The notes beneath the pieces were generated by a model. The model saw only the letters and a program-made list of their open reading frames with translations. It was not told the DNA's origin and searched no databases. Shown here piece after piece: positions 13,159 to 58,958 of a DNA stretch of 64,000 nt (its first letter is position 1; each line of letters opens with the position of its first letter). Source of the stretch: an uncultured Lentisphaeraceae bacterium (GTDB lineage: Bacteria > Verrucomicrobiota > Kiritimatiellia > RFP12 > UBA1067); the NCBI GenBank assembly GCA_964482645.1, contig CAYZYQ010000001.1, forward strand, positions 31,271 through 95,270, read 5' to 3'. The translations under genes were made by a program, and so were the position numbers.

Positions 13159-13668
13159 ATGAGTATGATGATGTTTGCCCAGGCGGCGTCGAGTTGTTCG
13201 GCGTCGGCGGGTCTGTGCCCGGTCTCCTTGGGCATCGCAGCCGTCGTGGGCGCAGCCGTCGGTTTCGTCGCCGGCCGTCTGAGCAAGGGTGCGGGCAACA
13301 AGAACACGAAGAAAGCCGCGTCGCCGTCGCAGAAGAAAGGTTCGTCGCAGCCGCAGCCGCGCCGTGACCTGCGCATCACGGAAACGCGTGTGCCGATTCC
13401 GGCGGGCTACGTGGAAATCTACGTGGGCAACCTGAGCTACGACATGGACGAGCCGGCGTTGCGCAAGACGTTCGAGGCGTTCGGCACGGTTCACACCGCG
13501 CGTGTGGTGCTCAACCGCTACAACAACAAGTCCAAGGGCTTCGGTTTCGTGGTGATGCCGAATCGTCCCGAGGCCGAAAAGGCCATTGCGGCGCTCGACG
13601 AAAAGGACGTCATGGGCCGCAAGATGAAGGTGAACGAGGCCAAGAACACGGTCAAGCAAGAGGCCTAA
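13159..13668 (+). CDS. RNA-binding protein with RRM (RNP-1/RNP-2) domain and N-terminal hydrophobic segment
   Basis: RNP-2 IYVGNLSY and RNP-1 KGFGFVVM motifs in C-terminal 90 aa; N-terminal hydrophobic stretch LCPVSLGIAAVVGAAVGFVAG followed by basic linker. Confidence 0.7.
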   Translation: MSMMMFAQAASSCSASAGLCPVSLGIAAVVGAAVGFVAGRLSKGAGNKNTKKAASPSQKKGSSQPQPRRDLRITETRVPIPAGYVEIYVGNLSYDMDEPALRKTFEAFGTVHTARVVLNRYNNKSKGFGFVVMPNRPEAEKAIAALDEKDVMGRKMKVNEAKNTVKQEA

Positions 13669-13676
13669 GGACGGAT

Positions 13677-40662: not shown

Positions 40663-42882
40663 ATGGCGGGCGGGGCGGTGAAAACGGATGCGCTTGAGAC
40701 GGTCGACGGAACCGTCAAGAGCGTTGTTTTTCGTAACGACGATACGGGGTTCACCGTCCTCCACGTGGTGACGGAGGAGGCGCGGTTTCGTTTGGGCGCA
40801 CGGGAGACGACGGTGCTGGGTACGTGCGCCGCCGTCTGGGAAGGTGAGGAACTCCACGCCGAGGGTGTTTGGGTGCAGGATCCCGTACGTGGGCGGCAGT
40901 TCAAAGCGAAGACGATTGCCTGCATACCGCCGAAATCGACGGAGGGGATTCGCCGTTATCTCGCCAGTGGATTGATTAAGGGCATCGGCCCCGTGTTGGC
41001 GAACCGCATTGTCGATACGTTTGGCGCGGACACGTTGGATGTCCTCGACCACCACTCGGGACGCCTCTCCGAAGTCAACAAGGTGGGGCCGCGCAAGATT
41101 GAGCAGATTCGGAAGTCCTGGCGTGACGCGCGGGGGATGCGCGAAGTGATGATTTTCACGCAGACCTACGGCATCTCGGTGGCGAAAACGACGAAGATTT
41201 ATCGGAAGTACGGACCTGATTCCATTGCCATCATCAAGGCCGATCCCTATCGTCTCTGTCGGGACATCTGGGGAATCGGTTTCGCAACGGCGGATCGCAT
41301 CGCCACGAGTGTCGGTCTGCCCATGGATTCACCCCTCCGTGCCCGCGCGGCAATTCTCCACACGTTGCGCGTCGAGGCCGAAGAGGCCGGGCATTGCTGG
41401 ACGTCCGAACCCGATCTGCTCCTGCACGCGCAGGAACTCGTCGGCATCTCCGTGGAAATCCTCTCCGCCGCCCTTGCGGTGGAGGTTGCCGAACGGCGCG
41501 TTGTCCGTGAAGACGACCGTCTCTATCTGTACGAACTCTATGCGGCCGAAAAGAGCGTGGCGGCGAGGATACGTCGTCTGCTCGCGACGCGCCCGGCTTT
41601 CGCGCCCATCGATCCCGACAAGGCGATTCCCTGGTGGGAAGGGCGGACGGGGTTCACGCTCGCGCCGGCGCAGATGCGGGCCGTGCGGACGACGTTGCGG
41701 TCGAAAGTCGCGATTGTCACGGGCGGTCCGGGCGTCGGCAAGACCACGATTATTCGGGCGCTTGTGGATATCTATCGCGCGCGCGGCGGCGTTCATGCGA
41801 TCAAGACGCTTTTGGCCGCGCCGACGGGCCGCGCCGCAAAGCGAATGTCGGAATCGACGGGCGCGGCGGCCCAGACGCTCCACCGACTGCTCAAATACAA
41901 TCCGCAGACGAATGAGTTTACGTTCAACGCGGAACGTCCGTTGCCGGGTGACGTGTTCATCTTCGACGAGATGTCGATGGTCGACATTCGCTTGATGCGT
42001 GATCTCATGGTCGCGTTGCCGGACGAAGCCACGCTCATTCTCGTGGGCGACACCGACCAGTTGCCGTCCGTCGGCCCCGGCAACGTTCTGCGCGACTTGA
42101 TTCGCAGTGGGGCGATTGCGACGTCGCAGTTGACGGAGATTTTTCGTCAGGACAGTTCGGGGTTGATTGTCCGCAACGCCCACCATGTCAACGCGGGCGA
42201 GGGGTTGGAGACGCGGAGCGGCGAGAGCGATTTCTATTTCGTCCCGCAGGAAGACCCGGAGAAAGCGCTTGCCGCCGCGCTCGATCTTATGACGGTACGT
42301 ATTCCGCGCCATTTCCATCTTGAGCCGTTGCAGGACGTGCAGGTACTCACGCCGATGCGGCGCAATTTGCTGGGGGCGGAAAACTTGAACACCGTCATTC
42401 AGCAACGATTGAACGGCACAGGACCGTCCATTCCGCGTGGTGGTACCGTGTTCCGTGCGGGCGATCGCGTGATGCAGTTGCGCAACAACTACGACAAGGA
42501 TGTCTACAACGGTGACGTTGGATTCGTGCAGAGCGTCGATTCGGGCAATCGGTCGCTCATCGTCCTCTTCGACGGGCGGCCTGTGGAATACGGCAGTGCG
42601 GACCTTGATGAGCTGACATTGGCCTACGCGACGACGATCCACAAGTCGCAGGGCAGCGAATATCCCGCCGTCATCGTCATTCTGCATCGCCAGCACTACA
42701 TGATGCTGCAACGCAATTTGCTCTACACCGCGATTACACGCGGCAAGAAGCTCGTCCTCGTTATCGGGTCGGGTTGGGCCGTCAAGAAAGCCATCGAGAC
42801 GAACACCGTCCGCGAACGGCGTACGTCCCTTGCCGACCGTTGTGCGGTCACACCGCCGGGCGGGCTTCCTGCGGAATCATGA
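40663..42882 (+). CDS. recD2: RecD2-like SF1B ATP-dependent DNA helicase
   Basis: N-terminal OB/HhH region (GIGPVLANRIV), Walker A GGPGVGKTT, VFIFDEMSMVD, C-terminal 2B/SH3 and motif VI (ATTIHKSQGSEYPAVI); 739 aa; last about 40 nt form repeat copy 1. Confidence 0.85.
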   Translation: MAGGAVKTDALETVDGTVKSVVFRNDDTGFTVLHVVTEEARFRLGARETTVLGTCAAVWEGEELHAEGVWVQDPVRGRQFKAKTIACIPPKSTEGIRRYLASGLIKGIGPVLANRIVDTFGADTLDVLDHHSGRLSEVNKVGPRKIEQIRKSWRDARGMREVMIFTQTYGISVAKTTKIYRKYGPDSIAIIKADPYRLCRDIWGIGFATADRIATSVGLPMDSPLRARAAILHTLRVEAEEAGHCWTSEPDLLLHAQELVGISVEILSAALAVEVAERRVVREDDRLYLYELYAAEKSVAARIRRLLATRPAFAPIDPDKAIPWWEGRTGFTLAPAQMRAVRTTLRSKVAIVTGGPGVGKTTIIRALVDIYRARGGVHAIKTLLAAPTGRAAKRMSESTGAAAQTLHRLLKYNPQTNEFTFNAERPLPGDVFIFDEMSMVDIRLMRDLMVALPDEATLILVGDTDQLPSVGPGNVLRDLIRSGAIATSQLTEIFRQDSSGLIVRNAHHVNAGEGLETRSGESDFYFVPQEDPEKALAAALDLMTVRIPRHFHLEPLQDVQVLTPMRRNLLGAENLNTVIQQRLNGTGPSIPRGGTVFRAGDRVMQLRNNYDKDVYNGDVGFVQSVDSGNRSLIVLFDGRPVEYGSADLDELTLAYATTIHKSQGSEYPAVIVILHRQHYMMLQRNLLYTAITRGKKLVLVIGSGWAVKKAIETNTVRERRTSLADRCAVTPPGGLPAES

Positions 42883-42890
42883 ACGCGAGA
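42859..42890. repeat. direct repeat copy 1 (core GGGCGGGCTTCCTGCGGAATCATGAACGCGAG) at recD2 3' end
   Basis: 32-nt core identical to 54352-54383 and with 1 mismatch to 57799-57830; flanks partially similar. Confidence 0.8.
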
Positions 42891-42926
42891 TGTCGATGTC
42901 CCGCGTGTAGTGTGATCCGGAACCAA

Positions 42927-43322
42927 CTATCGCGAACTCAATGACTCCGGTAACCAGATGTCTTCCCAGAAGAACGTCGGAAAGAAGTCGATTGTTTCGC
43001 TTGAATGCGAAACCGAGTTTCCCCAGATGCCGAGCGTGAAGCAGTCGGCAACCCCGTCGACAATGCGCACGGCGCACATGACGGCGCCGGGGACAATGCC
43101 GAAGACGCCTCCCAAAAAAGCGCCTGGCTCGGCGGCGGATTCATATCCCCTGCCGCCATAGTACGATATGTCCCTGACGATTTCGCCAGGACTTGTGACG
43201 ACGTTCACGAGTCCGCGGCCGACGCCGGTGGGCGGCGGCCATCCAAATTCATCCCCGTCCTCGCTGGCGGCAAGGCACGCCAGCGTCGTGCAGGCGCATA
43301 TCAGCATGCAAAGCTTTCTCAT
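42927..43322 (-). CDS. small secreted/lipoprotein, possibly exosortase-associated TIGR04073-like
   Basis: Signal peptide with LAC lipobox; GRGLVNVVTSPGEIVRDI segment resembles the conserved core of TIGR04073-family small proteins; last gene of the operon. Confidence 0.45.
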   Translation of the reverse strand: MRKLCMLICACTTLACLAASEDGDEFGWPPPTGVGRGLVNVVTSPGEIVRDISYYGGRGYESAAEPGAFLGGVFGIVPGAVMCAVRIVDGVADCFTLGIWGNSVSHSSETIDFFPTFFWEDIWLPESLSSR

Positions 43323-43337
43323 CTCATGTTTCTCCTG

Positions 43338-44165
43338 TTAGGCAAACTCGACCCGGGCCTTTCCAAGGCATTTGCCCTCGGTGGTACGAATCAGCGCCGT
43401 CTTGACCTTCGTGACTGTCATGGTGTTGTCCAGGGGGTGGGCGCCTAGGCCGTAAACAATGTGGAGGTCGGAATTGATTGGATCTCCAACGAGATCCCAA
43501 GTCACTTCGCAGCCTGCCGTCCGCCCGTCAAGCAGTTTTTTGAATTGCCGCCGAATGTCTGTCAGTTTCGCCTCGTCGTCGCGGAACAATGTGTAGAGTT
43601 CGACGTCAAACGCCTTGAAGCGGTTGGCGAACGCAATGTTGTTGTTCCTTGCAGAACTGACGGCTCCGATGAAAAGAGACACGATTCTCGTCGCGTCAAG
43701 GTTGCCACCCAGTTCCTTCCATATCGGCAGAACCTCAAGATGCAGGTCTTCGGGGATGAACGACGGCATCGGTTCGTTTTCGATTCTATAGCCCTTTCCT
43801 CGAAGCGCAGCGCATTCTATTGCCGTCTTCTTCAACTCGTTCTCAAGTTCGGCGATGCGCTCCCTGAGCCGATCCGCCTCTGAAGGCCTCGGCGGCTTCG
43901 CGTCGCGCTCTGCGAGTGAATGGTGTGAAATCCACTCCTGCCGGTTCCAGATTGCGCAGAGCTTTTGGAGACCGTCGGGCATGACTGCGCCTGGATGCTC
44001 TGAAAGGGTACGGGCGATGTCGGAGTCGGAGAGTCGCTTGTTGACGAAGCGCACCGCGAAGTCCTTGCCGATTTTTTCTTCAAGGGCGTCGGCGACGACG
44101 CACACCTGCCCGTCGTCGATCAGCCCTGTTTCGACAATGCGTGAAAGTACAGTGGTCAGGTTCAT
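43338..44165 (-). CDS. hypothetical protein (central coiled-coil)
   Basis: 275-aa ORF with lower-GC codon usage consistent with neighbours; 4-nt overlap with upstream gene; no recognisable motif. Confidence 0.5.
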   Translation of the reverse strand: MNLTTVLSRIVETGLIDDGQVCVVADALEEKIGKDFAVRFVNKRLSDSDIARTLSEHPGAVMPDGLQKLCAIWNRQEWISHHSLAERDAKPPRPSEADRLRERIAELENELKKTAIECAALRGKGYRIENEPMPSFIPEDLHLEVLPIWKELGGNLDATRIVSLFIGAVSSARNNNIAFANRFKAFDVELYTLFRDDEAKLTDIRRQFKKLLDGRTAGCEVTWDLVGDPINSDLHIVYGLGAHPLDNTMTVTKVKTALIRTTEGKCLGKARVEFA

Positions 44166-45286
44166 TCCGCATCAACCCCCGCATGAGACAGACATTTCGG
44201 TTCACCGTTTTTCGGCAGGCACATGACATACGCTGAACGGGCGTAGGTGATTCTTCTCGCGTTTTCGTTGCCCTCATGGATTTCCTTGTCGAAGTCATCG
44301 CCTTTTTTCGGCCAGCAAACCGAGATCGTGCAGTCGTCGCGCTTGCCGGCCATTTTGCTGTTCAGGTATCTTTCCACGCGTCTGCGGCATTCCTCCAATG
44401 TGTCTCCGCTGCCCATGGCCTTGGCGAAAGCATTGTCGAATGCCCTGAACCGTTCGACGAAGACATCCCTGTCAAGGGATCCCGTCAGAAGCCACATGAA
44501 GGAGTAGGCGCATTGAAGCCTGCGGCGTGAATCCTCGGAGTCGTCCGCATCCTCCCGATAGCCGAAGAGGTCGCACACATCCTTCGGCATTGCCTTTTCG
44601 ATTTCCAAACGCACTTTTTCAAGTTCGTCCTCGCACCCGGCCCTCACCTGCTCTATTTCCTCATTCTTCTCTTTGAGAGCCGATTCGTACTTCTGCCGAA
44701 TTTCCTCGATTTCGGCCTTATGCTCTGCCTCCATGGCGTTCTTTTCGGCTTCGCAGTTGCCCTGCTCCGTGGAAACTGTCTGCTCCATCGCCACCGCAAT
44801 GTCCATCTTGCGCTTTTCTTCCAGGCGGCATCTTTCATCGTCAAACGCCTTGCGCTCCGCCTCAAGCGTTTTCTTGGCCTCACACGCTTCCTCAAAGTCC
44901 TTCCGCGCCGATTCTTCAAGGCGCCTCTTGTCGCACTTCAACGCTTCGACCTCTTTATTCAGCGCTTCGACCTCTTCATTCAGATCGGCATTCTCCATGC
45001 GGTATCTTATTGTGTCGTCCAGAAGGAGGGAATAGGTCTTTTTATGCCGTTCAAGCTCCGTTTCAAGTTCGCGTTTCTTCTCATCGTTCAGTCTGTCGAC
45101 CTGTTCGTATCGGGCCTTGATTGCGTCCTTGATTGCATTCAGGCTGACGTTCAGGCTGGCGAGAACCTTGTTCGCGACTTTGTCGCATATGTTTTCGATC
45201 AGAATCTCGTCCGAAGAAGGTGGCTGGGAGGCCGTGGATGGAATCTCGGCGGCTTCGCTTTTGCTGGAAGTGTTTTCATCGGTCAT
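44162..45286 (-). CDS. coiled-coil protein, Glu/Lys-rich
   Basis: About 250 aa of heptad-like E/K/L-rich sequence (ELETELERHKK..., LNEEVEALNKEVEALK...) followed by globular Cys-containing C-terminal domain; 20-nt gap to upstream gene. Confidence 0.55.
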   Translation of the reverse strand: MTDENTSSKSEAAEIPSTASQPPSSDEILIENICDKVANKVLASLNVSLNAIKDAIKARYEQVDRLNDEKKRELETELERHKKTYSLLLDDTIRYRMENADLNEEVEALNKEVEALKCDKRRLEESARKDFEEACEAKKTLEAERKAFDDERCRLEEKRKMDIAVAMEQTVSTEQGNCEAEKNAMEAEHKAEIEEIRQKYESALKEKNEEIEQVRAGCEDELEKVRLEIEKAMPKDVCDLFGYREDADDSEDSRRRLQCAYSFMWLLTGSLDRDVFVERFRAFDNAFAKAMGSGDTLEECRRRVERYLNSKMAGKRDDCTISVCWPKKGDDFDKEIHEGNENARRITYARSAYVMCLPKNGEPKCLSHAGVDAE

Positions 45287-45306
45287 GTTCCGTCTCCTCT
45301 TTTTCT

Positions 45307-47691
45307 TCAGGCTATTTCAACGATGCGGTCCATCATGAACTCGCCGTCCATTGTGCAGACGCGGCACTCGACGTCTTCGGGATGCAGTTCCGTGGCGTCG
45401 CCTCTGAACGTGCCGGTTGCGGACACGACTCGCAGGGCGTTGTTCAGCGGATCGCTTTCAAGTCTCACCGAGACTCCGTCGCCGATTCCGCCATGTTTTT
45501 CGAGCGCTTCCGGTTTTATGCGGAGTTCGTACGACAGGATGGCTGTTTTCCCATATGGCGTCTTGCGCGCGAAAAGACGTCGCGGCGACGTCATCGGGAT
45601 GTCCTTCTGCAGTTCCCCGTCTCCGAATATCGGGCGCGTGAACGCGACGTGCTGCCCGTCGGGAACGATGCCCCACTTGAAGTCCGTGTTCACGACGTTG
45701 TTCGTGAACGACAGGTTCACGGATGCTTCGTTGCGCAGCGCATACAGCGCTCCGCCAAGCGCGGTCGAGATCTTCGAGTCGGTGATGCTCTTCGCGCCAT
45801 TGAAGAACTTGCCGCACCAGTCGCTGACGCGGTAGTCCTTCATGCTCCGGATTGCGGACGAGGGCAGGGCGATGCGTCTCTTGAACACGTTCTGCACTGC
45901 GGTGAACTCCATCGTCTTTCCGGAGAGGACGAGCATGTCGACGTCGTACGCGGCAATCAGATTCGCGAAGGAATGCGCGATGCTCCGAAATGTCTTCTCC
46001 GCGGTTGCACGGTAGGCGGAGACAATCTCCTGCGTAATGGCAATCTCGATTTCAAGGTCCTTGACTTTCTCAACGTCATCGATTTTCAGTTTTGCAATGC
46101 GGCACCAATCGGTGGCGTCGTCGTTCGAGAACTTGTGCCGGAAGACAGACAGGTCGTCATCGCGGATGTCGTCATTCGGATATCGCCGCAGAAGTTCGTC
46201 CAGTTTGATGGCGAGCGAAAGGGCAAGGTCGAACCAGAACGTCTTTGTCAGCGATCTGACGTGCGATCGCATTTCCGACGAATGGTAGTTCGCGCGAAGG
46301 TCTGCGTCCTTCGTTCCGAATTCATGCTCCAATTTCTGCGCAACGGCCTTGAACCCTGCCTTGGCAACGCAGTTCTCGATGAACGCGAAGATGAACGCAT
46401 CTCCGGCCGTGTTCACGCCATCGCGGCAGAAGAGGTCTATCGTGGCGCTGTACGGATCGACGCCGGCCGTTTCCTCCGATGCGGACACGGCGGATATCGA
46501 GAGATCGGACGTTCCGCCTCCGACGTCGATGACGGCAATCCTGGCCTCGCGTCCAATCGGAGACCTGCGGCCTATGGACTGGAGCCAGAAGAACGCACTC
46601 GGGTTTCTGCGGATTTCGTTGTAGGCGAAGAGAGAGAGCACGGACGTCGCCTCGTCGATGTCCGAGGTCAGCTCCACTTCCGTCTCGGGAAAATTCCGCA
46701 GATAGGCTCGCAGTCCATTCTGCAGCCGTTCGCGGTACAGTTCCAGCTCGCGCGGCAGAAGCGTGGAAGGATATGTGACGTGAATGCGGGAGATTCTGCG
46801 GCAGCGCGAGTCGCATGATTTTTTCTTGAACTCCGCCGAAGAGACGTAGTAGCACCCCTGTTCGTACAGTTCCGCCAGCATGGCGCCGAGCATGGCGGCG
46901 GGTGGAAGACGGTTCATGTCGATTCCGCAGTCCATTCCAAGTTCTGCCGCGATGATTCCGTTCAGATGTTCCACTTTCGGCTGCTCGGCGTCGACAGGCA
47001 TTCTTGAGGCGACCCATTCGCGTGACGAAGGATCGGCGTCCCAGAAATACCTTTTGGGGCTTGAAAGCGTATAGCGTCCCGCTCCTTCGCGACCTCTGAA
47101 CTGATAGTTGTTCCATTCCGCAAAGCGTCCGAGTCTGACAAACGACAGCCGTCCCTCGTTGTCGCAGAATTCACCGTCGGGGCGTGAATCCGCGTTCGTG
47201 AGCGACACCAGGCTTTTGAACGCGCCCTTCAGGGGACTCTCGCTTTTCCGCTGCTTGCACGCGATCGGCAATTCGTATACCGACGGGGCGCTTTCTCCAA
47301 GACCGTCGACGAGAAGAGCCACCGTGCGCGTGTTGCCAAGATCAATTGAGAGCATGCAGTCGACGACGTTGGACGGCGTCGCGATCTCATAACCCTCCCA
47401 GTCCTCGAAGTCGCCTAACTTTCTCCTGGCGTTTGGGTCTTTGCGGTCGCCGGGACGCGGCAGGGAAGGGCGCGCGTCGACCGTGAGGTACAGTATGTAC
47501 CTGGTCGTTTCCGTATCTCCGCCTACGGGTCTGCTCTTTTCCGTGGATGTCACGTACAGCAGACGATGGGGCACGACCCCTCCGTCCGATTCGGCTGCGA
47601 ACGCGCCCTGTTCCAGATTGTTAAACACGCTTTCCTCTAGATCAAGTTTCAGCGTGCAGACTTCGCCTTTGTAGATTGCAGATAATGCCAT
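45307..47691 (-). CDS. Hsp70/actin-fold ATPase-like protein (about 795 aa)
   Basis: Phosphate-1-like MLSIDLGNTRTVALLVDG and phosphate-2-like IAVIDVGGGTSDLSI motifs in the spacing expected for an Hsp70-type nucleotide-binding domain; start ambiguous (ATG 47691, or 47793/47838 overlapping upstream gene). Confidence 0.65.
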   Translation of the reverse strand: MALSAIYKGEVCTLKLDLEESVFNNLEQGAFAAESDGGVVPHRLLYVTSTEKSRPVGGDTETTRYILYLTVDARPSLPRPGDRKDPNARRKLGDFEDWEGYEIATPSNVVDCMLSIDLGNTRTVALLVDGLGESAPSVYELPIACKQRKSESPLKGAFKSLVSLTNADSRPDGEFCDNEGRLSFVRLGRFAEWNNYQFRGREGAGRYTLSSPKRYFWDADPSSREWVASRMPVDAEQPKVEHLNGIIAAELGMDCGIDMNRLPPAAMLGAMLAELYEQGCYYVSSAEFKKKSCDSRCRRISRIHVTYPSTLLPRELELYRERLQNGLRAYLRNFPETEVELTSDIDEATSVLSLFAYNEIRRNPSAFFWLQSIGRRSPIGREARIAVIDVGGGTSDLSISAVSASEETAGVDPYSATIDLFCRDGVNTAGDAFIFAFIENCVAKAGFKAVAQKLEHEFGTKDADLRANYHSSEMRSHVRSLTKTFWFDLALSLAIKLDELLRRYPNDDIRDDDLSVFRHKFSNDDATDWCRIAKLKIDDVEKVKDLEIEIAITQEIVSAYRATAEKTFRSIAHSFANLIAAYDVDMLVLSGKTMEFTAVQNVFKRRIALPSSAIRSMKDYRVSDWCGKFFNGAKSITDSKISTALGGALYALRNEASVNLSFTNNVVNTDFKWGIVPDGQHVAFTRPIFGDGELQKDIPMTSPRRLFARKTPYGKTAILSYELRIKPEALEKHGGIGDGVSVRLESDPLNNALRVVSATGTFRGDATELHPEDVECRVCTMDGEFMMDRIVEIA

Positions 47692-47716
47692 GAGGGTTTC
47701 CAGAGAATGTCCGTGT

Positions 47717-48193
47717 TTACTTTGAATCGCATTGGAACAGGCTTTCAAGGCGCATTCGCCAGGGCTTTGTCTGTCCCTGCCCAAGGACGGCATTTGCGTC
47801 CTTGATTGAACGGTGCGTATCGTCGGTCGACGTTTCACCGCGCATCACGCGCATGAAGAACCGCGCGAGATGATCGCGGATTTCCTTCTCCGATGCGTTC
47901 CAGTTGCAGAGTTCGTCGCTGAACGTCTGGAACTCATTCGATTCGCCATCGTCGCCGAGACAGCGGTCGCAGCGCTTCCGATAGAACGCCTGCCGTTCGG
48001 AAGACGGCCCGGCGGCCTTGATGAACTCCTTTAGGATTTCCGCAACGGCGTCCGTGTCCACGTACTGGTCTTCCAGGTCAAGGGCGATGAAATGGTCTCC
48101 AACCAGTTCCGTCTCGTCCCATATCAGCCGGAGATACGTCTCTTCCGTGGCTCCGGCCTTTTTTTCCCTCTCGAAATCTTCTCTAAGTCCCAT
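47717..48193 (-). CDS. hypothetical acidic protein
   Basis: 158-aa ORF tightly packed between tubulin-like and Hsp70-like genes; no recognisable motif. Confidence 0.5.
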   Translation of the reverse strand: MGLREDFEREKKAGATEETYLRLIWDETELVGDHFIALDLEDQYVDTDAVAEILKEFIKAAGPSSERQAFYRKRCDRCLGDDGESNEFQTFSDELCNWNASEKEIRDHLARFFMRVMRGETSTDDTHRSIKDANAVLGQGQTKPWRMRLESLFQCDSK

Positions 48194-48206
48194 TTCCCAT
48201 CTCCAA

Positions 48207-51164
48207 TCAGATTCCGTGGATATCCAGCGTGGACGTTATCGTCGCCTTTGCCGTATTGAGCTCCGCGATTTCCGCGTCCGTTATTGAAAAACGGAGGGCG
48301 TTGAAGATGTCTGTTTCGCAATTCAGCACGCTCGTGAACCTCGCCTTTGGATAGAACGATACGAAACCCTTCGGACTGCGGATCCACGCGAGAATCTTTC
48401 CCGTCCAGTCGACGGAAATAAAGTCGAACTGGCACGTGCCATCGAGATTGTCCACCACGCCCAGTTCGTGAAGCCTTGCGCCCGGGAGTCCAAACTTGTC
48501 TCCGTCCTTTGTGAACGTGAACTCGACTTTGGGCTTGTGCAGCAGGACGGTGGCGTCCGGATTCGCGGTGTTTTTCTTGTACGCCTTCCAGGACTCGTTG
48601 AGTCTGCACTCGATCGATTCCATGATGACGCCGAAACGGATCATTTCGGACAGCGTCATGGTCGTTCGCGACGACGGCGCCATGAGACCGGCCCTTATCC
48701 ACGCCTGTTTTACGGCGGGCATGGACGAATAGAGCCTTGAGAGCGTGTCGTGCGCCGTGAAGTCGATGCCGAGAGTCCCCATCCAGAGCCCCTGCACGTG
48801 TATAGGCGTCGCGTCCTTCTTCCTGCCCTTGAACAGCGGCGACGCGGCGGTTTCCTCGTCCTTCCACATGTTCGGGTTCATGATGCCCGATGAATGGTTT
48901 ACGGACAGGAAGGAATCTGCCGAGTTTGCCGTGTTCGGCATGGTCTTCAGACCGAGGACGTCGCAGACGTCGCCATTCGTCATCTTGAAGCCAGGCGGCG
49001 TTCCGCCCTGCTTGATTACGTAGTGGTAGTGGAACGTCTGGGAGTCCGGCGCCGCGAATTCCGGCGCATTCGTCCTGCAGCCGATTGAGTTCTTTGCCAC
49101 GGAGAAGTCCTGAAGCGTTGCACCCGAAAGAGGGTTGGCGCCCGGCTCCAGCTGGTCTGCAAGTTCGATGAACTTGTTGAAGACGCTTTCCTCCGCAAGC
49201 TCCAGGATGGCGTCCGCCGTATGGTCGTAATTGAGGAGTAGTTCGGCGGAGTCGTCGCGTGCGTTCATGTCCTTCACGGTCTGCACGTTCAGTCTCTTGT
49301 CGTTGACGCACTTGCGGTACACGATCGACATCACGATGCGGAATGGATCGAATGCGAGCTGTTTGCGCTTCTCGTCCGGGAGCGGGGCAAGCGGTTCCAC
49401 GAGAAGACCGTCTATGATGTGCGGATTCGTTCCGCCGCGCAGCTCCTTGCACTGTCTGTGCAGTTTCGCCTTCAGTTCGTCGCACTCTTTCCTGAAGTCG
49501 GAGAGTTCGCGCGAAAAGGCGCCTGTGTCGATGAACGACGTGCGCGCGCAGCGGCAGGCGCAGATGTAGAAGCCGAGCAGTTCGCGGAAGCGCTTGTCAA
49601 ACGCATCCACCACTTCCCTGAAGACTTCGTCCTCTTTCGAGAGGCCGAACACCCAGTCGCGTACGACGCGATTCTGCTTCCGCGTCGAGGCCAGCGCGAT
49701 CGCATTGTCCAGCGACTTGACCATCTCGGCCGCATACTGGGAGACGTTTGCCTTAAGCCCCTGGATCTTGTCATGAAGTTCTTTGTATCCCTGGGCGATG
49801 AGTTCCACGTTGACGTCGCCGTTCCAGTCTGCATACTTCGAACAGGCGAGGAGGAGCATGAGTTCCTTGGCGGGGACGACCCTGTACTCCGGAACGCCGT
49901 CTTTCACCGCGTCAAGCAGTTGCCTGAAGGAGTTCCTGAATTCTCCAAGGGACCTCTCGTTGATGGCGCCGCGTTCTTCCGCCTGGAGCAGCGCTTTCAG
50001 CGGAATGCACTGCGCGGGATCGACGCCGGCAAGGGCTTTCCTGTATTCGGGCAGCTGGGCGTCGATGAACACGCTTTTGACGTTCTCCAGGATTGCGGGG
50101 GCAGCTCCGCTTCCGTTCAGAAATCCCGTCCGCCCGTCCTTGCCGTCAAGGACGGCGATGAGGCTCTTGTAGAACCAGTTCTTCAGCGAGACCATCCGTC
50201 CGCTTTTCATCACGAACATGTTGAATGCGGAAAAACACGGATCCTCCTTGTCCACGTGGTACGCGGGGCCTGACTGCCCCGCGATCAGCCTGTCCACCCA
50301 GCGCGGATGGAATTCCTCCACGTGGAGGTACGTGGCGGCGAAGAGCTGTTCGGCCAGGAGCGACGTCACAAGCGGCCGGCGTCCATGCGGCGTGGGAAGC
50401 ACGTAGAGGTTGCCCATGGGCAGGGATGAACCCGAAATGCCGCGGTCTGCAAGCACGTGTCCGTCGGGCTTCGCGCCGGTGAACAGCGGAAACGCTTGGT
50501 CTTCCTTCTGCACCCACACGGGGACTTTGAAGCCGGGGCGTTCCGATTCCAGCCGTCGCCGCCAGCTTGCCGTCTGGAGGTCCTTGAACATCGAGATCAT
50601 GTTCAGCGCGATTGGATAGTTGCCCTCTCCGGGAATCGCCTCCGGCATCAGGAGAAAGCCCAGCACCACCACGTTCTTGAAGTCGGGGTTTGCGTTTCTC
50701 TTCCGCAGAATCTGCAGGTCGAGGAAATCGCATATGTTCAGGAACAGGCCTCCGGACGTTCCACCGAACGCAGAGCCCACCACGACGATCTGGTCGTCCG
50801 GTTCTAGCGGGAATTCGTTCTCGATTTCAGCCCAGGTCTTTCTGATGAACTCGGCCGCCTTGCCGGAGACAGAACGGTCGCCGCCGACACCGCCCGCAGG
50901 AACGGTCTTGGCCGTCCATGACGGCTGGAAGCTCTTTTCCACGTCTCCGTCGTCGTCCGATATCTTCAGCACGTAGCCCTTCACGCGCGACGTGTGCAGG
51001 CGCGTCCCAAGGGCGTTGAAGGCGTCGATCTCCGACGGCATCGAGTCGATCGCCACGTAGCGGTCGTCGAACCTTCCAAACAGATTCTCCTCGCACAGGC
51101 GTTTGATGAGCGCCATTACGCCTTTCAACGACTCGCTTCCGGATGCAATGAAAATTCTCTTCAT
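48207..51164 (-). CDS. tubulin/FtsZ-like GTPase domain protein with about 700-aa helical C-terminal extension
   Basis: N-terminus RIFIASGSESLKGVMALIKRL...VAIDSMPSEIDAF resembles the FtsZ/tubulin N-terminal strand-loop-helix and DxxAL; VVVGSAFGGTSGGLFLNICDFL resembles the T4 GGGTGSG loop; 985 aa. Confidence 0.6.
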   Translation of the reverse strand: MKRIFIASGSESLKGVMALIKRLCEENLFGRFDDRYVAIDSMPSEIDAFNALGTRLHTSRVKGYVLKISDDDGDVEKSFQPSWTAKTVPAGGVGGDRSVSGKAAEFIRKTWAEIENEFPLEPDDQIVVVGSAFGGTSGGLFLNICDFLDLQILRKRNANPDFKNVVVLGFLLMPEAIPGEGNYPIALNMISMFKDLQTASWRRRLESERPGFKVPVWVQKEDQAFPLFTGAKPDGHVLADRGISGSSLPMGNLYVLPTPHGRRPLVTSLLAEQLFAATYLHVEEFHPRWVDRLIAGQSGPAYHVDKEDPCFSAFNMFVMKSGRMVSLKNWFYKSLIAVLDGKDGRTGFLNGSGAAPAILENVKSVFIDAQLPEYRKALAGVDPAQCIPLKALLQAEERGAINERSLGEFRNSFRQLLDAVKDGVPEYRVVPAKELMLLLACSKYADWNGDVNVELIAQGYKELHDKIQGLKANVSQYAAEMVKSLDNAIALASTRKQNRVVRDWVFGLSKEDEVFREVVDAFDKRFRELLGFYICACRCARTSFIDTGAFSRELSDFRKECDELKAKLHRQCKELRGGTNPHIIDGLLVEPLAPLPDEKRKQLAFDPFRIVMSIVYRKCVNDKRLNVQTVKDMNARDDSAELLLNYDHTADAILELAEESVFNKFIELADQLEPGANPLSGATLQDFSVAKNSIGCRTNAPEFAAPDSQTFHYHYVIKQGGTPPGFKMTNGDVCDVLGLKTMPNTANSADSFLSVNHSSGIMNPNMWKDEETAASPLFKGRKKDATPIHVQGLWMGTLGIDFTAHDTLSRLYSSMPAVKQAWIRAGLMAPSSRTTMTLSEMIRFGVIMESIECRLNESWKAYKKNTANPDATVLLHKPKVEFTFTKDGDKFGLPGARLHELGVVDNLDGTCQFDFISVDWTGKILAWIRSPKGFVSFYPKARFTSVLNCETDIFNALRFSITDAEIAELNTAKATITSTLDIHGI

Positions 51165-51189
51165 GGTGTTTCCTTTCTGCGTCTGCGCC

Positions 51190-51783
51190 CTACAGTCTTG
51201 TCGTCTGCCGCTTCATCTTGAAGCCCGGCCAGAAGAACCATGCCAGCACGACCATGTCCAGAAGTGTCGGAATGATTGGGTGTATGTAGCCGTAGTGCCT
51301 GTAGAAGAATGCGGTCGTCCTGTACGCCGGCCGCTTGCTTGCGTCGGCGTGGTCTTTCGCGTCGCCCTTGTTCTGCGCGGCGCGACTGTTCTGGCACTTC
51401 TCGCTGATGGCCTTGATGTTCCAGAAGTCGTTCTTCGCGTTCGCGTCATATCCCGGCATCGACGCCCTGTAGTCCGTCGCGAACGACGTGATCCCGCTTA
51501 TTTCGGTCACCAGCACGGAGTGCGCGACGAAATAGATGCACGCCATGGCGACGAGGCTGGCCCAGAAGCACTTGCACCATGCCTCCCCGGCCGTGCGCCA
51601 GGCGCCTTTTGCCTCTTGATTGAATCGGTTTCGGAAAAAGCGCACAAGGCCGAAGACCAGGCCGACGGGAAGGGCGATGAAGAAAAAGGCGTCCCAGGCG
51701 AGAAGCGCCAGGCTCGTCGGCAGAAGGCTTTTCAGCATCGTCAGCCATCCTTCGACGGACAGCGAATTCAGAGTTTCGATCAT
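51190..51783 (-). CDS. integral membrane protein (about 4 TM)
   Basis: Hydrophobic helices LLPTSLALLAWDAFFFIALPVGLVFGLV, CFWASLVAMACIYFVAHSVLV, IIPTLLDMVVLAWFFW; 14-nt gap to neighbours. Confidence 0.55.
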   Translation of the reverse strand: MIETLNSLSVEGWLTMLKSLLPTSLALLAWDAFFFIALPVGLVFGLVRFFRNRFNQEAKGAWRTAGEAWCKCFWASLVAMACIYFVAHSVLVTEISGITSFATDYRASMPGYDANAKNDFWNIKAISEKCQNSRAAQNKGDAKDHADASKRPAYRTTAFFYRHYGYIHPIIPTLLDMVVLAWFFWPGFKMKRQTTRL

Positions 51784-51797
51784 TTCCGTTCTCCTTG

Positions 51798-54176
51798 TTA
51801 GACTGCCCGTCGGAACTCGATTTGTCCGACAGGCTCCATTGCCACTTTGTTTTCAAACAGCAGGTAGATCCCCTCGTCGAAGACGACCGTGTTCTCCCCG
51901 ACGGTCTTCTTGTCCGTGCCTGCAATGGGCATCAGTTGGACGTCCTTGCCGGGGGCGCGCAGTTCAAATTCGACCGCCTCCGTCTCCCCCTTGCGGCAGA
52001 TGACGACGAGGTCGACCGGACAGCCGCATTTCCCGTCCAGTCGCACGGCGCGGTTGAGCCTGACGTCAAGCACGACTTGCGTATCGGACTCCTTGTTTGA
52101 ACGGTAGAGGATCTGCGCGGCAGTTCTGCCGCGAACGAGCTTGGCGACAACCACGCCCGTACCTGCGACAAGAGCCGGCAGCAGCACGAACGGAAGAACG
52201 TTGCCTCCGCCATTCGGCGTTCCGCCTTCGACCGGGATGGGCACTCGCTTCCACTCTTCGAGTTCGGCCTTGGCCGTTGCCAGCTCGTTGTCGTTTACGG
52301 CCGCCTCCACTTTTTTCCGTAGCGATTCAAGTTCGGCGCGGTTCTGGATGACGTCGTCGCCATTTGCCGAATTGTCCAGGCGCCAGACTCGCCTGTTCAG
52401 GAGTTCATCTTTCTTTCCTTGAAGTGCGGCCTCCTTGACGCGCCGTTTTTCTTCATCGTCCTTAAACTTTTCGGCCTCTTGATCGGCTTCGACCTGTTTA
52501 GGTGTCTTTGTGGCTGACTTCGTGGCGGGTTTCCATACATTGAATGCGTTCACCGCCTCGTCGAGGGAATCTTTGTCTTTTGCGGCTTTTATCCTCTGCA
52601 GAATCGTAGAGAGGTCTTCGTGATTGAAGATTTGATCCTCGGAATATACGGCCAGTTGTCTCTCCACAATACTAATGGCATTCGTACGCAATTCTTCAAA
52701 CCTGCGGCGGGCTATTTCCGCCTCTATCTCCTTGTTCCTCCGCGCCATGCTTTCCTCCAGTGTAGAAAGGCGTCCCGCCAGTTTTTCAAGCTCGGAGATG
52801 AACAAGGCGATGTCCTTCGTCGACAGCCTTGGGTCGTTGTCGATGAAGCCCGTGCACTTTGCAAGTTGATTGGAGATGTCGTTACAGTCGGAAGCAAAGG
52901 CGCTTCTGTCGCTCGCCGGCATTTTGGAAAGGCGTTCTACGGTGGAGTGCACTTTGATGGCGATGCCCTTCTTCTTTTCCTTGAGTTCGCGCAGGCATTC
53001 AAGGCGCGTGTTCTCTTCGGTCACGGATGCGACGAGTTCTGCGATGGAATCCAGTTTTACCTTGATATACGGCTTGTCAGGTGCAGCGGCAAGGTCGGCG
53101 AGCTGTTTCACGGCGTCGCCTTTCTGCCCTTCCTTCCGCGCCTTTGCGAGGGCGTTTGTGACATCGGAGAAGAGACGTTCTCTGTCGCGAAGACATCCGT
53201 AGTCGAACAGACTCGAATCCCATGTGCGCGTATACGTGATTCCGGCGGGCGAGACAATTGACGCCACCAGTTCATTCTGTCCGAGAACGGGCGTCAGGTT
53301 CGTCGAGTCTTCGTCAAGCGAAATAGACTGCCCATTGTGCCTTATGGTCGTCGTCCATGTTTCCCTTCTTGGCAGTCGGCTTGTTCGCCTTACGGCGATA
53401 TGCGTGTCTTCTGGATTGCAGACAAGCGCCTCCAGACCGGCTTTCTCCGTTTCCGAAAGCGCGTAGTAATGGTCGACGATGGCGTTGGCGACGTCGTTGG
53501 CGTTCGTGTCCAGGGCGACGCGAAGGAAATCTCGCCATTTTTCATGCGACCAGTATGGCTTGAAGATGCCCGCGTTCACTGATTCTGCTGGCGCGTGAAG
53601 CATGAAAAACATGATGTCGTGTTCTTCGTCGAGATGAAACGCGCCATGTCGCGTAGTCAGGTCCGGGTCGTTGGAAATGATGCAGACGACGACATTTCGG
53701 GCAGATTTTTCGTTGTCGAGCACCTGCTTCACGAGGATGTCCCGTCCCCACTCCTCGTCCTCTTTCCCGAATGCGCCGAAATCGGAACGGCTGGCTTTCC
53801 TTGAAAGCGAAAATGGCATGACGATGCCGGGTTTCAGCAGATATGCCGTCCCCGTGTTCACTTCGACGTAGTTTCCGAAGCCGCGCCGGCGCAGCCCTGC
53901 TTCAATCGGATTGTCACGATCGGCCAGAAGCGACCGCAATGCGTTGATGGCACGGACATAGGCGTGGGACGTTCCGTAGTCCATGTTCGCGTCCTTGTTG
54001 CGCTTGTGTCCGTCCACGTAGAAATGCACACTGACATCCCGTCGCCCGTCCAGCGACATGTTTCTCTCTATGGGCGGTACCGCCATGTCGTTCAATGCGG
54101 CCGCGCAAGTCCATGCCGCAAGCAAAATCGCGACTATGCCATATGATTTAAACATAAATTCTCTTCCTTCGCACAA
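51798..54176 (-). CDS. secreted/membrane-anchored protein: signal peptide, about 300-aa ectodomain (possible degenerate vWA), long coiled-coil, single TM, about 110-aa C-terminal domain
   Basis: Signal peptide MFKSYGIVAILLAAWTCAAA; ectodomain with DVSVHFYVDG...NVVVCIISNDPDL; about 250 aa Lys/Glu-rich coiled-coil; TM VLPFVLLPALVAGTGVVVAKLV; first gene of operon. Confidence 0.6.
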   Translation of the reverse strand: MCEGREFMFKSYGIVAILLAAWTCAAALNDMAVPPIERNMSLDGRRDVSVHFYVDGHKRNKDANMDYGTSHAYVRAINALRSLLADRDNPIEAGLRRRGFGNYVEVNTGTAYLLKPGIVMPFSLSRKASRSDFGAFGKEDEEWGRDILVKQVLDNEKSARNVVVCIISNDPDLTTRHGAFHLDEEHDIMFFMLHAPAESVNAGIFKPYWSHEKWRDFLRVALDTNANDVANAIVDHYYALSETEKAGLEALVCNPEDTHIAVRRTSRLPRRETWTTTIRHNGQSISLDEDSTNLTPVLGQNELVASIVSPAGITYTRTWDSSLFDYGCLRDRERLFSDVTNALAKARKEGQKGDAVKQLADLAAAPDKPYIKVKLDSIAELVASVTEENTRLECLRELKEKKKGIAIKVHSTVERLSKMPASDRSAFASDCNDISNQLAKCTGFIDNDPRLSTKDIALFISELEKLAGRLSTLEESMARRNKEIEAEIARRRFEELRTNAISIVERQLAVYSEDQIFNHEDLSTILQRIKAAKDKDSLDEAVNAFNVWKPATKSATKTPKQVEADQEAEKFKDDEEKRRVKEAALQGKKDELLNRRVWRLDNSANGDDVIQNRAELESLRKKVEAAVNDNELATAKAELEEWKRVPIPVEGGTPNGGGNVLPFVLLPALVAGTGVVVAKLVRGRTAAQILYRSNKESDTQVVLDVRLNRAVRLDGKCGCPVDLVVICRKGETEAVEFELRAPGKDVQLMPIAGTDKKTVGENTVVFDEGIYLLFENKVAMEPVGQIEFRRAV

Positions 54177-54212
54177 GATGTCGTTGAATGAAAACGCGCA
54201 TATTTTACAATA

Positions 54213-54231
54213 CCCCCCCCCCCCCCCCCCC
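54213..54231. repeat. homopolymeric C19 (G19 on coding strand) tract 37-55 nt upstream of operon start codon
   Basis: 19 consecutive C residues read directly; sits between island operon start (54176) and repeat copy 2. Confidence 0.9.
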
Positions 54232-54338
54232 TGTCAACTGCAAGTTTTGGAATTGTCATTTGTCAGAGTGAATGTACCTATGGCAGTCGCATCTATTCTG
54301 GCAAGCGACCTACAAATGTACGTGTAAAGGCGTTGTGC

Positions 54339-54383
54339 ACTCACGCCACGGGGCGGGCTTCCTGCGGAATCATGAACGCGAGG
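54339..54383. repeat. direct repeat copy 2
   Basis: CACTCACGCCACGGGGCGGGCTTCCTGCGGAATCATGAACGCGAG; 41/41 identical to 57786-57826. Confidence 0.85.
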
Positions 54384-54418
54384 TGACGGGCGACGAATTG
54401 ACTGCGACGAGCTTTTGG

Positions 54419-55684
54419 TTACGCTTTCGTTGAGAACAACTTGTCCAGCTGCCCTCTGACGTCGAGGCCGCCTTCGCTCTTGTACACCGTGGCGTAGAGG
54501 CACGAACCGCCTGACTTCGCCGCCCAGAGGCGGCCGATGGCGTCCTTTTCCAGCGTGTCCCTGGCGTTGCGCAACTGTTCGCCCTTGTATTCGACCGCGA
54601 AGAGGCGTCCGTCGTCAAGGACGCCCACGAAGTCCGGGAAGAACCGCGTGTGCGCCAGCGGCAGCCAGAACGACTCGTCGCACGTGTCGAGATTGCGCAG
54701 CCACGTCCTGACTTTCGGATGGGCGTCAATCAGCTTTGCGCACTCGAACTCTTCGCCCTCGCCGTATTTCAGCTGCCCGTCGAACGCCGGGATGCGGTGC
54801 GTTCCAAGAAAGTGCTTGTTGAAGCGGTAGTTGCCACGGTAAACCTCAAGCATCGTCTGATTGCGATAGAGCGCGTCGTCCAACGCAAAAGCCTTGTCCA
54901 CGTTCAGTTCAACACGATGGACGCTGTCGAAGAACACCGCTTGATAGGCCTTCTTCCGGACGATTCTCGCGGCCTCGGCAATATGGCCGTCGAGACAGTT
55001 TCGCAGTTTGTAGCGGAAGCAGTAGAGCTGTGCCGGCGTGAATCCCCTGGCCGTCACAAGATGATTGACGACCCCGGCGATCCAGCCGCGCATCACCTCC
55101 GGCGGAATCGCATTGTGCCGCGTCAGGGCGGCGAGTTCATTGACCACGTCTCCCGGCGCAAGATCCGTCTTGACCTCTTGCAGGAACGTCATCTGTTCGT
55201 GCGCGAACTGCTGTTTGATTTCATTTCCGTTCAGTTCGAGAACAAACGTTTCGCCCTGTTCCCTTATCTCGAATTCGCCGTCCGGCAGCACGGCGTGGTT
55301 CGCCTCCAGTTCCCTGCCCAGATCCTCGCCCGCCAGTTCCTCCGCCTCTTCGCCGTCGAAGCAGAGTTCGCCCTGGACGTCTGCGCAGAGTTTTGGAAAC
55401 GTCATCTTGACGGAGTTCGCGGGAACGGCCTCGACGGCCTCTGACTTCTTCTCTGCGACCTTCTTCAGGAATTGGGCGGCGAGTGCGGTCTGGCCGTTTT
55501 CATGCAGGAGGTTCGCGATTTTGGATGCGGATGCCTCGGAGATGTCCGCCCTTACCGCAATCGTCCCCGAACCGTCGGCGTTCGCTGTCACCTCGACGTC
55601 TTCGGGCATTTCGGCGGCAATGGCCTCGTACACTGGAGTTTTGGAGTTCGGGAGACGCGAGGGTGTTCCGCAATTCTCCCCCAA
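54419..55684 (-). CDS. PD-(D/E)xK restriction-endonuclease-like domain protein (possibly truncated)
   Basis: C-terminal FFPDFVGVLDDGRLFAVEYKGEQL shows D...E-x-K nuclease core similar to type III restriction Res C-terminal domains; no helicase motifs in N-terminal half. Confidence 0.5.
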   Translation of the reverse strand: MGENCGTPSRLPNSKTPVYEAIAAEMPEDVEVTANADGSGTIAVRADISEASASKIANLLHENGQTALAAQFLKKVAEKKSEAVEAVPANSVKMTFPKLCADVQGELCFDGEEAEELAGEDLGRELEANHAVLPDGEFEIREQGETFVLELNGNEIKQQFAHEQMTFLQEVKTDLAPGDVVNELAALTRHNAIPPEVMRGWIAGVVNHLVTARGFTPAQLYCFRYKLRNCLDGHIAEAARIVRKKAYQAVFFDSVHRVELNVDKAFALDDALYRNQTMLEVYRGNYRFNKHFLGTHRIPAFDGQLKYGEGEEFECAKLIDAHPKVRTWLRNLDTCDESFWLPLAHTRFFPDFVGVLDDGRLFAVEYKGEQLRNARDTLEKDAIGRLWAAKSGGSCLYATVYKSEGGLDVRGQLDKLFSTKA

Positions 55685-58870: not shown

Positions 58871-58958
58871 TGGCGGAGAGAGAGGGATTCGAACCCCCGA
58901 AGCCTTGCGGCTCGCCGGTTTTCAAGACCGGTGCATTCAACCACTCTGCCATCTCTCC
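58871..58958 (-). tRNA. tRNA-Ser (anticodon TGA)
   Basis: Reverse complement GGAGAGATGGCAGAGTGGTTGAATGCACCGGTCTTGAAAACCGGCGAGCCGCAAGGCTTCGGGGGTTCGAATCCCTCTCTCTCCGCCA folds as cloverleaf: 7-bp acceptor, anticodon loop CTTGAAA, long variable arm, TTCGAAT T-loop, encoded CCA. Confidence 0.85.

Follow-up and report, generated by a model that had tools for sequence, protein, structure and literature searches.

A short-form SrfB-family protein, predicted to be an Hsp70-type ATPase, in an island-borne cassette with a tubulin-fold GTPase and probable GrpE-like proteins

The window analysed here is a stretch of 64,000 nucleotides from an uncultured Lentisphaeraceae bacterium (contig CAYZYQ010000001.1, positions 31,271 to 95,270 of the forward strand), and the subject of this work is the gene at 45307..47691 on its minus strand. 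The product of this gene is a short-form SrfB-family protein, predicted to be a catalytically intact, active Hsp70-type ATPase, and the gene is the fifth of eight closely packed minus-strand genes that together make up a cassette of 11.5 kb. The ATPase is strictly associated, with co-divergence, with a tubulin-fold GTPase as well as with membrane and coiled-coil proteins, and the cassette is rare, accessory and island-borne. On balance, we favour the view that the protein is an SrfB-family switch of the Hsp70 type, which would be served by GrpE-like cofactors and coupled to the tubulin-like GTPase at the membrane. The combination of an Hsp70-type SrfB, a tubulin-like GTPase, membrane proteins and probable GrpE-like cofactors has not been described before, and a link between SrfB and Hsp70 or actin-fold ATPases is absent from the top-ranked results of a full-text literature search.

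The SrfB-like ATPase and its predicted Hsp70-type fold

The open reading frame (ORF) in which the protein lies runs from 47838 to 45307 on the minus strand, with a GTG start and 843 codons, exactly as described in a sequence-only reading of this DNA. That reading had called the start codon uncertain, naming ATG 47691 or upstream starts overlapping the preceding gene; the former, which gives a protein of 794 aa, is upheld, whereas the latter are not. The upstream starts GTG 47838 and ATG 47793 are excluded by the N-termini of the homologues, which begin 3-8 residues ahead of a conserved (Y/K)xGE(V/I) motif, and by the stop of the preceding gene at 47717, upstream of ATG 47691. Gene callers give 794 aa for the ATPase on near-identical contigs, and the identical 794-aa protein is recorded on ~60 contigs. 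It has no signal peptide or hydrophobic segment according to hydropathy analysis. The gene and the parts of its product are as follows.

45307..47691, minus strand: gene 5, the SrfB-like ATPase under study, 794 aa, a short-form SrfB-family ATPase with Hsp70 fold
Residues 1-105: N-terminal beta domain
Residues ~106-656: nucleotide-binding domain (NBD)
Residues 430-581: large helical insertion in lobe II of the NBD
Residues ~657-794: C-terminal beta domain of 8 strands

Both of the Hsp70 phosphate motifs that had been noticed by eye are real. The phosphate-1 motif, MLSIDLGNTRT, comprises residues 113-123 (window 47323-47355), and the phosphate-2 motif, IAVIDVGGGTSDLSI, comprises residues 385-399 (window 46495-46539); they are not chance matches, because D117, G119, N120, D389, G391-393, T394 and D396 are invariant or nearly invariant across 54 homologues. 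The spacing of ~330 aa, which had been taken as that of an Hsp70, was mistaken: D117 and D389 are 272 residues apart, compared with 186 in DnaK (D8 to D194), and the longer spacing reflects insertions. Conserved catalytic residues were looked for in the same 54 sequences, and K213 (in SSPKRY), E347, A429-G430-D431 and G591 also proved to be (near-)invariant. The Hsp70 catalytic set is retained in full: the phosphate-1 D117-x-G-N, K213 of SPKRY, E347 of I-D-E-A-T, D389-x-GGGT-x-D396, A-G-D at residues 429-431, and SGKT of the adenosine motif. A profile of the subfamily, compared with E. coli DnaK by HHalign, gave a match of 89% probability (E 2.4e-6) in which IDEAT is paired with INEPT (E347/E171) and IAVIDVGGGTSD with IAVYDLGGGTFD; E347, D389, T394 and D396 of the ATPase are thereby mapped onto E171, D194, T199 and D201 of DnaK, respectively. 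Because the catalytic residues are (near-)invariant and are aligned to those of DnaK, the protein is predicted to be a catalytically intact and active ATPase of the Hsp70 type.

The structural model points to the same fold. The AlphaFold2 (AF2) model of the ATPase has a predicted local distance difference test score (pLDDT) of 92.4 and a predicted TM-score (pTM) of 0.92, and in the Foldseek comparison that the earlier reading had proposed, Hsp70s (DnaK, BiP, Ssb and Hsp110) account for 50 of the 50 best PDB matches (E 1.2e-18 to 1e-14); FtsA, MreB, ParM and actin account for none. The proposal of an Hsp70-like, actin-fold ATPase is therefore supported by the Pfam family to which the protein belongs, by the HHalign match to DnaK, and by the AF2 model together with Foldseek. 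Searches at the level of single sequences and general family models were less productive. Pfam HSP70 (PF00012) has no match to the ATPase at E <= 0.1, phmmer of the ATPase against PDB gave no match, and the subfamily profile gave marginal matches to PDB sequences, namely MreB at the phosphate-2 motif (E 0.018), mortalin (0.046) and DnaK (0.13). With no HSP70 hidden Markov model (HMM) match, no J-protein and a substrate-binding domain (SBD) that is putative, the ATPase is outside the Hsp70 family proper.

The family to which the protein does belong is SrfB. Comparison with SrfB-like proteins had been suggested from the letters of the sequence, and the ATPase scores 134.8 bits on Pfam SrfB (PF07520; E 4.1e-39), above the gathering threshold of 27.1; the hmmscan match spans model positions 247-832 of 992, short of full length. 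A database search returned 97 relatives, and PF07520 is on record for 97/97. These relatives fall into length classes of ~780-820, ~890-913 and ~1000 aa, the last being the canonical SrfB. The identity of the ATPase to canonical SrfB is 20-26%, and a scan of 185,579 species-representative genomes with the SrfB subfamily found canonical SrfB only, in this same range of identity; the nearest named relatives come from environmental metagenome-assembled genomes (MAGs) of Kiritimatiellae. When the profile of the short subfamily was aligned with that of canonical SrfB, HHalign gave 100% probability (E 2.9e-74), with query positions 100-792 on template positions 247-987. Because the alignment has this extent, the short form keeps the family core together with the C-terminal beta domain, and the ~246-aa N-terminal domain of canonical SrfB is swapped for a different beta domain of ~100 aa.

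The C-terminal half of the protein calls for a revised description. It had been suggested that the ~400 aa remaining after the phosphate-2 motif do not look like an SBD; ~265 of these residues are indeed something else, namely lobe II of the NBD with its long helical insertion, whereas the unlikeness to an SBD is not established for the last ~135 aa, which form the 8 strands. The Foldseek alignments of the ATPase cover 690-730 columns with full-length Hsp70s, with better E-values, compared with 552-565 columns for NBD-only entries, and the TM-scores are nearly the same for both kinds of entry. From these model-based comparisons, the C-terminal beta domain may resemble the substrate-binding beta-sandwich of Hsp70.

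The tubulin-fold GTPase and the other cassette proteins

The gene order of the cassette is shared by at least seven divergent lineages; beyond the window, it is found in loci L001, L003/L004, L008, L009, L011 and L094. The ATPase of the window is 48% identical to its counterpart in L001 and 35% identical to that in L003/L004, and the pairwise identities of the tubulin-like and SrfB-like proteins drop together (57/48, 29/35 and 24/31%). The ATPase gene stands between genes 4 and 6, and the seven other genes of the cassette are listed here in the order of transcription.

51798..54155, minus strand: gene 1, 785 aa from ATG 54155; N-terminal signal or anchor, long coiled-coil-rich region, one transmembrane helix (~653-671) and a tail of ~115 aa
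51190..51783, minus strand: gene 2, 197 aa, polytopic in the membrane (3-4 hydrophobic helices by hydropathy)
48207..51164, minus strand: gene 3, tubulin-like, 985 aa; the N-terminal ~340 aa with tubulin/FtsZ fold, then a mostly helical extension of ~640 aa
47717..48193, minus strand: gene 4, 158 aa, acidic and cytoplasmic, with no recognisable domain (Pfam)
44162..45286, minus strand: gene 6, 374 aa; an N-terminal coiled coil and a conserved C-terminal domain of ~100 aa, probably GrpE-like
43338..44165, minus strand: gene 7, 275 aa, a paralogue of gene 6, with a coiled coil and the same C-terminal domain
42927..43322, minus strand: gene 8, 131 aa, with a lipoprotein-like signal (hydropathy)

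The sequence-only reading had placed the ATPase next to a tubulin-like GTPase inside an island operon. The island is confirmed, and the tubulin fold is supported by Pfam (below the cut-off), AF2 and Foldseek, but the two genes are not directly adjacent, as the 158-aa gene at 47717-48193 lies between them. The T4-loop signature of gene 3, GSAFGGTSGG, comprises residues 130-139 (window 50748-50777); G130, A132, F133, G134, T136 and G139 are invariant, S131 and G135 are nearly so, and S137 and G138 are variable. The match of the window protein to Pfam Tubulin_2 has an E-value of 4e-5 and a score of 23.4 bits, below the cut-off of 27, and many of its orthologues have a Tubulin_2 match on record. 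Its AF2 model has a pLDDT of 86, and for the N-terminal third, all 50 of the 50 best Foldseek matches in PDB are tubulin, CetZ or TubZ, with a best E-value of 2.9e-4 and TM-scores of 0.3-0.45. The HHalign comparison with FtsZ matches the T4 loop only and is not significant. The tubulin-like family is rare, with 29 clusters, and no relatives were found by pattern scan of the 185,579 species-representative genomes and IMG/VR.

A variant of the cassette was observed in two contigs in which a deletion of ~175 bp (window 48192-48366) joins residues 1-932 of the tubulin-like protein and the 158-aa protein in one reading frame, with a product of 1089 aa (protein P0242, L070 3205-6474). The in-frame fusion is a Rosetta-stone hint that the two proteins interact.

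The partner of the ATPase distinguishes the short cassettes from canonical SrfB operons. Across the 9 short-SrfB cassettes and 47 canonical SrfB loci covered, an HMM of the tubulin-like protein has a match in each of the former and in none of the latter. The canonical loci carry SrfC (Virul_Fac, PF10139), with a Walker A motif, and no cassette protein has a Virul_Fac match in Pfam. Because the tubulin HMM is limited to the short-SrfB cassettes and the canonical loci carry SrfC, the tubulin-fold GTPase stands in the position where a canonical SrfB operon has the P-loop NTPase SrfC. The possibility that SrfC and the tubulin-like protein are homologous was rejected, as no similarity was found, and sequence comparison gave no solved structure related to SrfC. 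In comparison with the canonical SrfB of Salmonella, Xenorhabdus, Pseudomonas and others, the window protein has a homologous NBD and C-terminal beta domain with the same invariant motifs, and both have a large NTPase partner (850-1000 aa) and, in some loci, envelope proteins with immunoglobulin (Ig)-like domains. Unlike canonical SrfB, it is ~200 aa shorter, no SrfA is encoded in its cassette, and its partner is of the tubulin fold instead of the P-loop type.

Directly downstream of the ATPase gene lie genes 6 and 7, the start of gene 7 overlapping the stop of gene 6 by 4 nt. Their C-terminal domain of ~100 aa is common to the gene or genes directly downstream of SrfB in every cassette, and it is found, weakly, in four canonical SrfB loci of Planctomycetota. 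A word-index homologue search with a profile of this domain found 5 proteins only, whereas an exhaustive search of representatives gave 106 family members, in all but one of which the domain is C-terminal, behind coiled coils of variable length. By eye, the conserved pattern W..G(D/E)xFDxxxH ... V..V.SA.I ... G...KA.V.T resembles the C-terminus of GrpE. An early HHalign comparison with 8 GrpE sequences gave 56% probability; with a 108-member profile and 17 genuine GrpE sequences, the probability was 62% (P 7.4e-5) and the score 36.5 over 90 columns, whereas a reversed template scored 14.6 and none of 40 column shuffles exceeded 13.6. The alignment ends at both C-termini (E. coli GrpE 100-197) and covers the helix plus the beta domain of GrpE. 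We rate the homology of the C-terminal domain of genes 6 and 7 to GrpE at roughly two in three, because the profile match, the architecture of coiled coil and C-terminal domain, and the position beside an Hsp70-type gene agree.

Two observations from other loci bear on this family. In L003 (12467-14440) and L008 (12762-13781), the GrpE-like coiled-coil protein has two N-terminal transmembrane helices, by which the putative exchange factor would be anchored in the membrane. In L032 (983-13674), a canonical SrfB locus in a Pirellulales MAG, a 1961-aa protein with Big_2 Ig-like domains, SrfC, SrfB and a weak member of the GrpE-like family are encoded in this order; the arrangement parallels the cassette of the window and suggests that the cofactor is older than the short SrfB subfamily.

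The length of 785 aa for gene 1 is that given by gene callers, and AGGAAG stands 6-8 nt ahead of its ATG; its orthologues have PKD or Flg_new Ig-like domains in several cassettes. Gene 2 is kept in L001 (46% identity) and in L003, and a gene of 132-182 aa occupies the position of gene 4 in every cassette. Gene 8 is 70% identical in L001, above the conservation of its neighbours, and is weakly matched by the exosortase-associated NCBIfam model TIGR04073, whose cut-off is 50 bits (here 29 bits, E 8.4e-7). None of the cassette proteins could be usefully named with PADLOC or NCBIfam, and neither a nuclease, a protease, an NADase nor another recognised effector domain was found in them with Pfam and NCBIfam.

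Mobility, repeats and flanking genes

The cassette is bracketed by a pair of direct repeats, and the features that define its surroundings are the following.

40663-42882, plus strand: recD2, with its 3' end within the downstream repeat
42838..42895, no strand assigned: downstream direct repeat copy, overlapping the final codons of recD2 and its stop; L063, an independent contig, has this copy too
54201..54237, minus strand: promoter-like site upstream of gene 1, with TTGACA (54237-54232), a G19 spacer (54231-54213) and then TATTGT/TAAAAT
54331..54388, no strand assigned: upstream direct repeat copy, a degenerate duplicate of the recD2 3' end; also present in L063
54419-55684, minus strand: remnant ORF of a Type III restriction enzyme, 421 aa with a TTG start (404 aa elsewhere); C-terminal half only, model positions 505-895 of 898
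58871-58958, minus strand: tRNA-Ser (TGA), ~4.5 kb beyond the cassette, past genes for a SIMPL-domain protein and a Na/Ca exchanger

The two repeat copies are 58 nt long and 88% identical, share a perfect core of 32 nt and are spaced 11,493 nt apart. They are the sole direct repeat of at least 24 nt within 42500-54700, and they bracket exactly the eight genes. With one copy being the 3' end of recD2, the pair has an att-like appearance, as left by site-specific insertion. The interval between the repeats contains no integrase; one is found beside the cassette in L003. GC content falls across the island from 0.61-0.66 to 0.56-0.60, and in a related strain other genes follow recD2 and the cassette is absent. 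The tRNA-Ser (TGA) gene is away from the cassette boundary that the repeats define.

Stand-alone contigs consisting of the cassette occur in different samples, many of them in Logan (e.g., L065-L070, 11,331-11,515 bp). An autonomous element, which recurrent eight-gene contigs of ~11.37 kb might suggest, was rejected: these contigs end in the 32-nt repeat core, in the poly-G tract or in the other repeat copy, and six independent assemblies break at 42860, within the 32-nt perfect core. The contigs of ~11.4 kb are breaks in de Bruijn graph assembly and not an independent replicon.

The G tract of the promoter-like site differs in length between assemblies, being G19 in the window, G22 in L063 and G14TG5 in L065/L070, and a promoter consensus scan that covers spacers of 16-18 nt only does not call the site at G19. 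The poly-G spacer may be compatible with a promoter that is phase-variable by slipped-strand mispairing, or it may reflect homopolymer sequencing error, tract lengths from short reads being unreliable. Outside the cassette, the restriction enzyme ORF matches PADLOC REase_III (E 8.7e-38) and is probably the remnant of a decayed restriction system. In L001, a 612-aa gene downstream of the cassette (13327-15165) matches the PADLOC candidate PDC-M26A with an E-value of 3.6e-33, a match in which coiled-coil bias is possible.

Proposed mechanism, alternative explanations and significance

In the mechanism that we favour, the ATPase would act as an ATP-driven conformational switch or clamp of a membrane-associated machine with two engines. 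Binding and hydrolysis of ATP in the NBD would control what the C-terminal beta domain holds, release of ADP would be catalysed by the two downstream coiled-coil, probably GrpE-like, proteins, and the ATPase cycle would be coupled to the assembly or activation of the tubulin-like GTPase, with the single-pass envelope protein and the polytopic membrane protein serving as a platform. The likeness to Hsp70/DnaK with GrpE extends to the fold, the catalytic residues, the order of the motifs and a possible beta-sandwich after the NBD, and the GrpE-like coiled-coil genes directly downstream of the ATPase recall the adjacency of grpE and dnaK. Unlike Hsp70/DnaK, the ATPase has large insertions and neither a recognisable interdomain linker nor a helical lid, and its gene is accessory and island-borne instead of housekeeping; unlike GrpE, the GrpE-like proteins are 275-750 aa long, with long coiled coils and sometimes a membrane anchor. 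The role of the system is accessory and horizontally mobile, and it most likely lies in an envelope-linked conflict (defence or toxin-like) or in a surface structure. A bolder scenario, in which a self-contained, mobile Hsp70-type cycle with its own GrpE-like factors came to govern a membrane-located GTPase of the tubulin fold, this fold having displaced SrfC, is offered tentatively.

Several points weigh against this mechanism. The coupling of the ATPase to the tubulin-like protein is deduced from gene order alone, and the likeness of the C-terminal beta domain to an SBD comes only from the lengths and E-values of the Foldseek alignments; HHalign against full-length DnaK aligned NBD residues 108-214 only, with no match to the SBD. 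As regards the exchange factors, Pfam GrpE had no match in scans of 8 and then of 108 family members, a 7-sequence profile searched against PDB sequences did not match GrpE, and neither did a profile compared with the single E. coli GrpE sequence. No J-domain protein was found in the cassette with Pfam. Canonical SrfABC has been published as a cytotoxin complex (PMC6950479), which is another kind of role, and for a role in defence, no PADLOC model rises above noise, the best being PDC-M61B with an E-value of 0.002 over 60 residues, plus coiled-coil noise.

Defence against phages or other invaders is in itself compatible with the Hsp70-type switch, and we consider it possible, though by no means probable, that the ATPase senses or remodels a protein or RNA of the invader or host, with the membrane proteins as abortive-infection effectors. 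Such a role would suit a low-GC, variable island that lies between direct repeats and is missing in a related strain, with the REase_III remnant, an integrase (L003) and the PDC-M26A candidate (L001) among the neighbours, and the possibly phase-variable promoter is a feature of some restriction systems. Predicted CoCoNuT/McrBC systems, in which Hsp70-like NBD/SBD units are coupled to GTPases (PMC10542128), provide the nearest conceptual precedent, by analogy, in their Hsp70-like/McrB modules. Like the cassette, these McrB-fused systems combine a divergent Hsp70-like module with a GTPase and are accessory, coiled-coil-rich and made up of several genes, the likeness of their Hsp70-like module to the ATPase being a conceptual one, by description. 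In those systems, however, an AAA+ protein, McrB, serves as the GTPase, the catalytic motifs have often degenerated and nucleases are encoded as well, whereas the cassette has intact motifs, a tubulin fold and no nuclease that could be found. Besides the PADLOC result given above, a defence function is opposed by the lack of a recognised effector domain in the cassette and of any relative on viral contigs in the IMG/VR pattern scan, and the extracytoplasmic Ig-like domains of gene 1 orthologues fit a surface function equally well. That the protein is a subunit of a secreted or delivered complex which is cytotoxic to eukaryotic cells, as in Xenorhabdus and Salmonella SrfABC, appears very unlikely. 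The ATPase is in the same Pfam family as SrfB, and a heteromer of SrfA, SrfB and SrfC has been reported as cytotoxic to both insect and HeLa cells (PMC6950479); however, SrfA and SrfC are absent from the cassette, the partner is of the tubulin fold, the ATPase lacks an export signal, and its named relatives are environmental and not known pathogens. Furthermore, an intact catalytic set of the Hsp70 type and probable exchange factors point to action inside the producer cell.

A cytoskeletal pair has also been weighed, in which the ATPase would be an actin-like tethering or filament partner of the tubulin-like protein, comparable to FtsA with FtsZ, in cytomotive membrane remodelling. The operon combines genes for an actin-superfamily ATPase, a tubulin-superfamily GTPase and membrane proteins, the many coiled-coil proteins suit a scaffold, and the top PDB sequence match of the subfamily profile is the MreB match at the phosphate-2 motif described above. 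FtsZl1/Tubulin_2 operons, moreover, have been predicted to be membrane-remodelling machines (Makarova and Koonin, PMC2875224, here and below as far as the parts of that paper drawn on go). Gene 3 is like FtsZl1 in having an N-terminal divergent tubulin/FtsZ domain followed by a long helical or coiled-coil extension, and the cassette is like those operons in that membrane proteins are co-encoded and in being patchy and probably mobile. We nevertheless hold this explanation to be unlikely, because all fold neighbours of the ATPase are Hsp70s, with no FtsA, MreB, ParM or actin among the 50 best structural matches. The sole significant profile match is DnaK, and the probable GrpE-like partners suit an Hsp70 cycle and not a filament. 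According to Pfam, the cassette lacks the vWA partner that FtsZl1 operons typically have, OmpA, protein kinase and P-loop GTPase partners are missing as well, and an SrfB-type ATPase is not named among the FtsZl1 partners in those parts of the paper. The resemblance to FtsA-FtsZ, an ATPase and a GTPase of these two superfamilies encoded close by and placed at the membrane, is one of analogy only; the structural neighbours of the ATPase differ, and the FtsZ match of gene 3 is confined to the T4 loop.

The SrfB-family, Hsp70-type switch remains the explanation towards which we lean, and its significance extends beyond the window. SrfB is widespread, occurring in Salmonella, Yersinia, Pseudomonas, Planctomycetota and others, where it is annotated among 'virulence factors'. 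Identification of the family as a catalytically intact ATPase of the Hsp70 type, as predicted here, turns an annotation label into a testable machine. The large NTPase partner of SrfB is swappable, being either a P-loop or a tubulin-fold protein, with the probable GrpE-like cofactors travelling along, and the least understood branch of the bacterial tubulin superfamily gains a new set of partners. The compact 11.5-kb cassette is also suited to heterologous reconstitution. If an Hsp70-type cycle does control the tubulin-like GTPase, the cassette would represent an unrecognised class of prokaryotic envelope machine with two engines, one driven by ATP and one by GTP, and would provide the first mechanistic handle on how the 'virulence factors' of the SrfABC type act.

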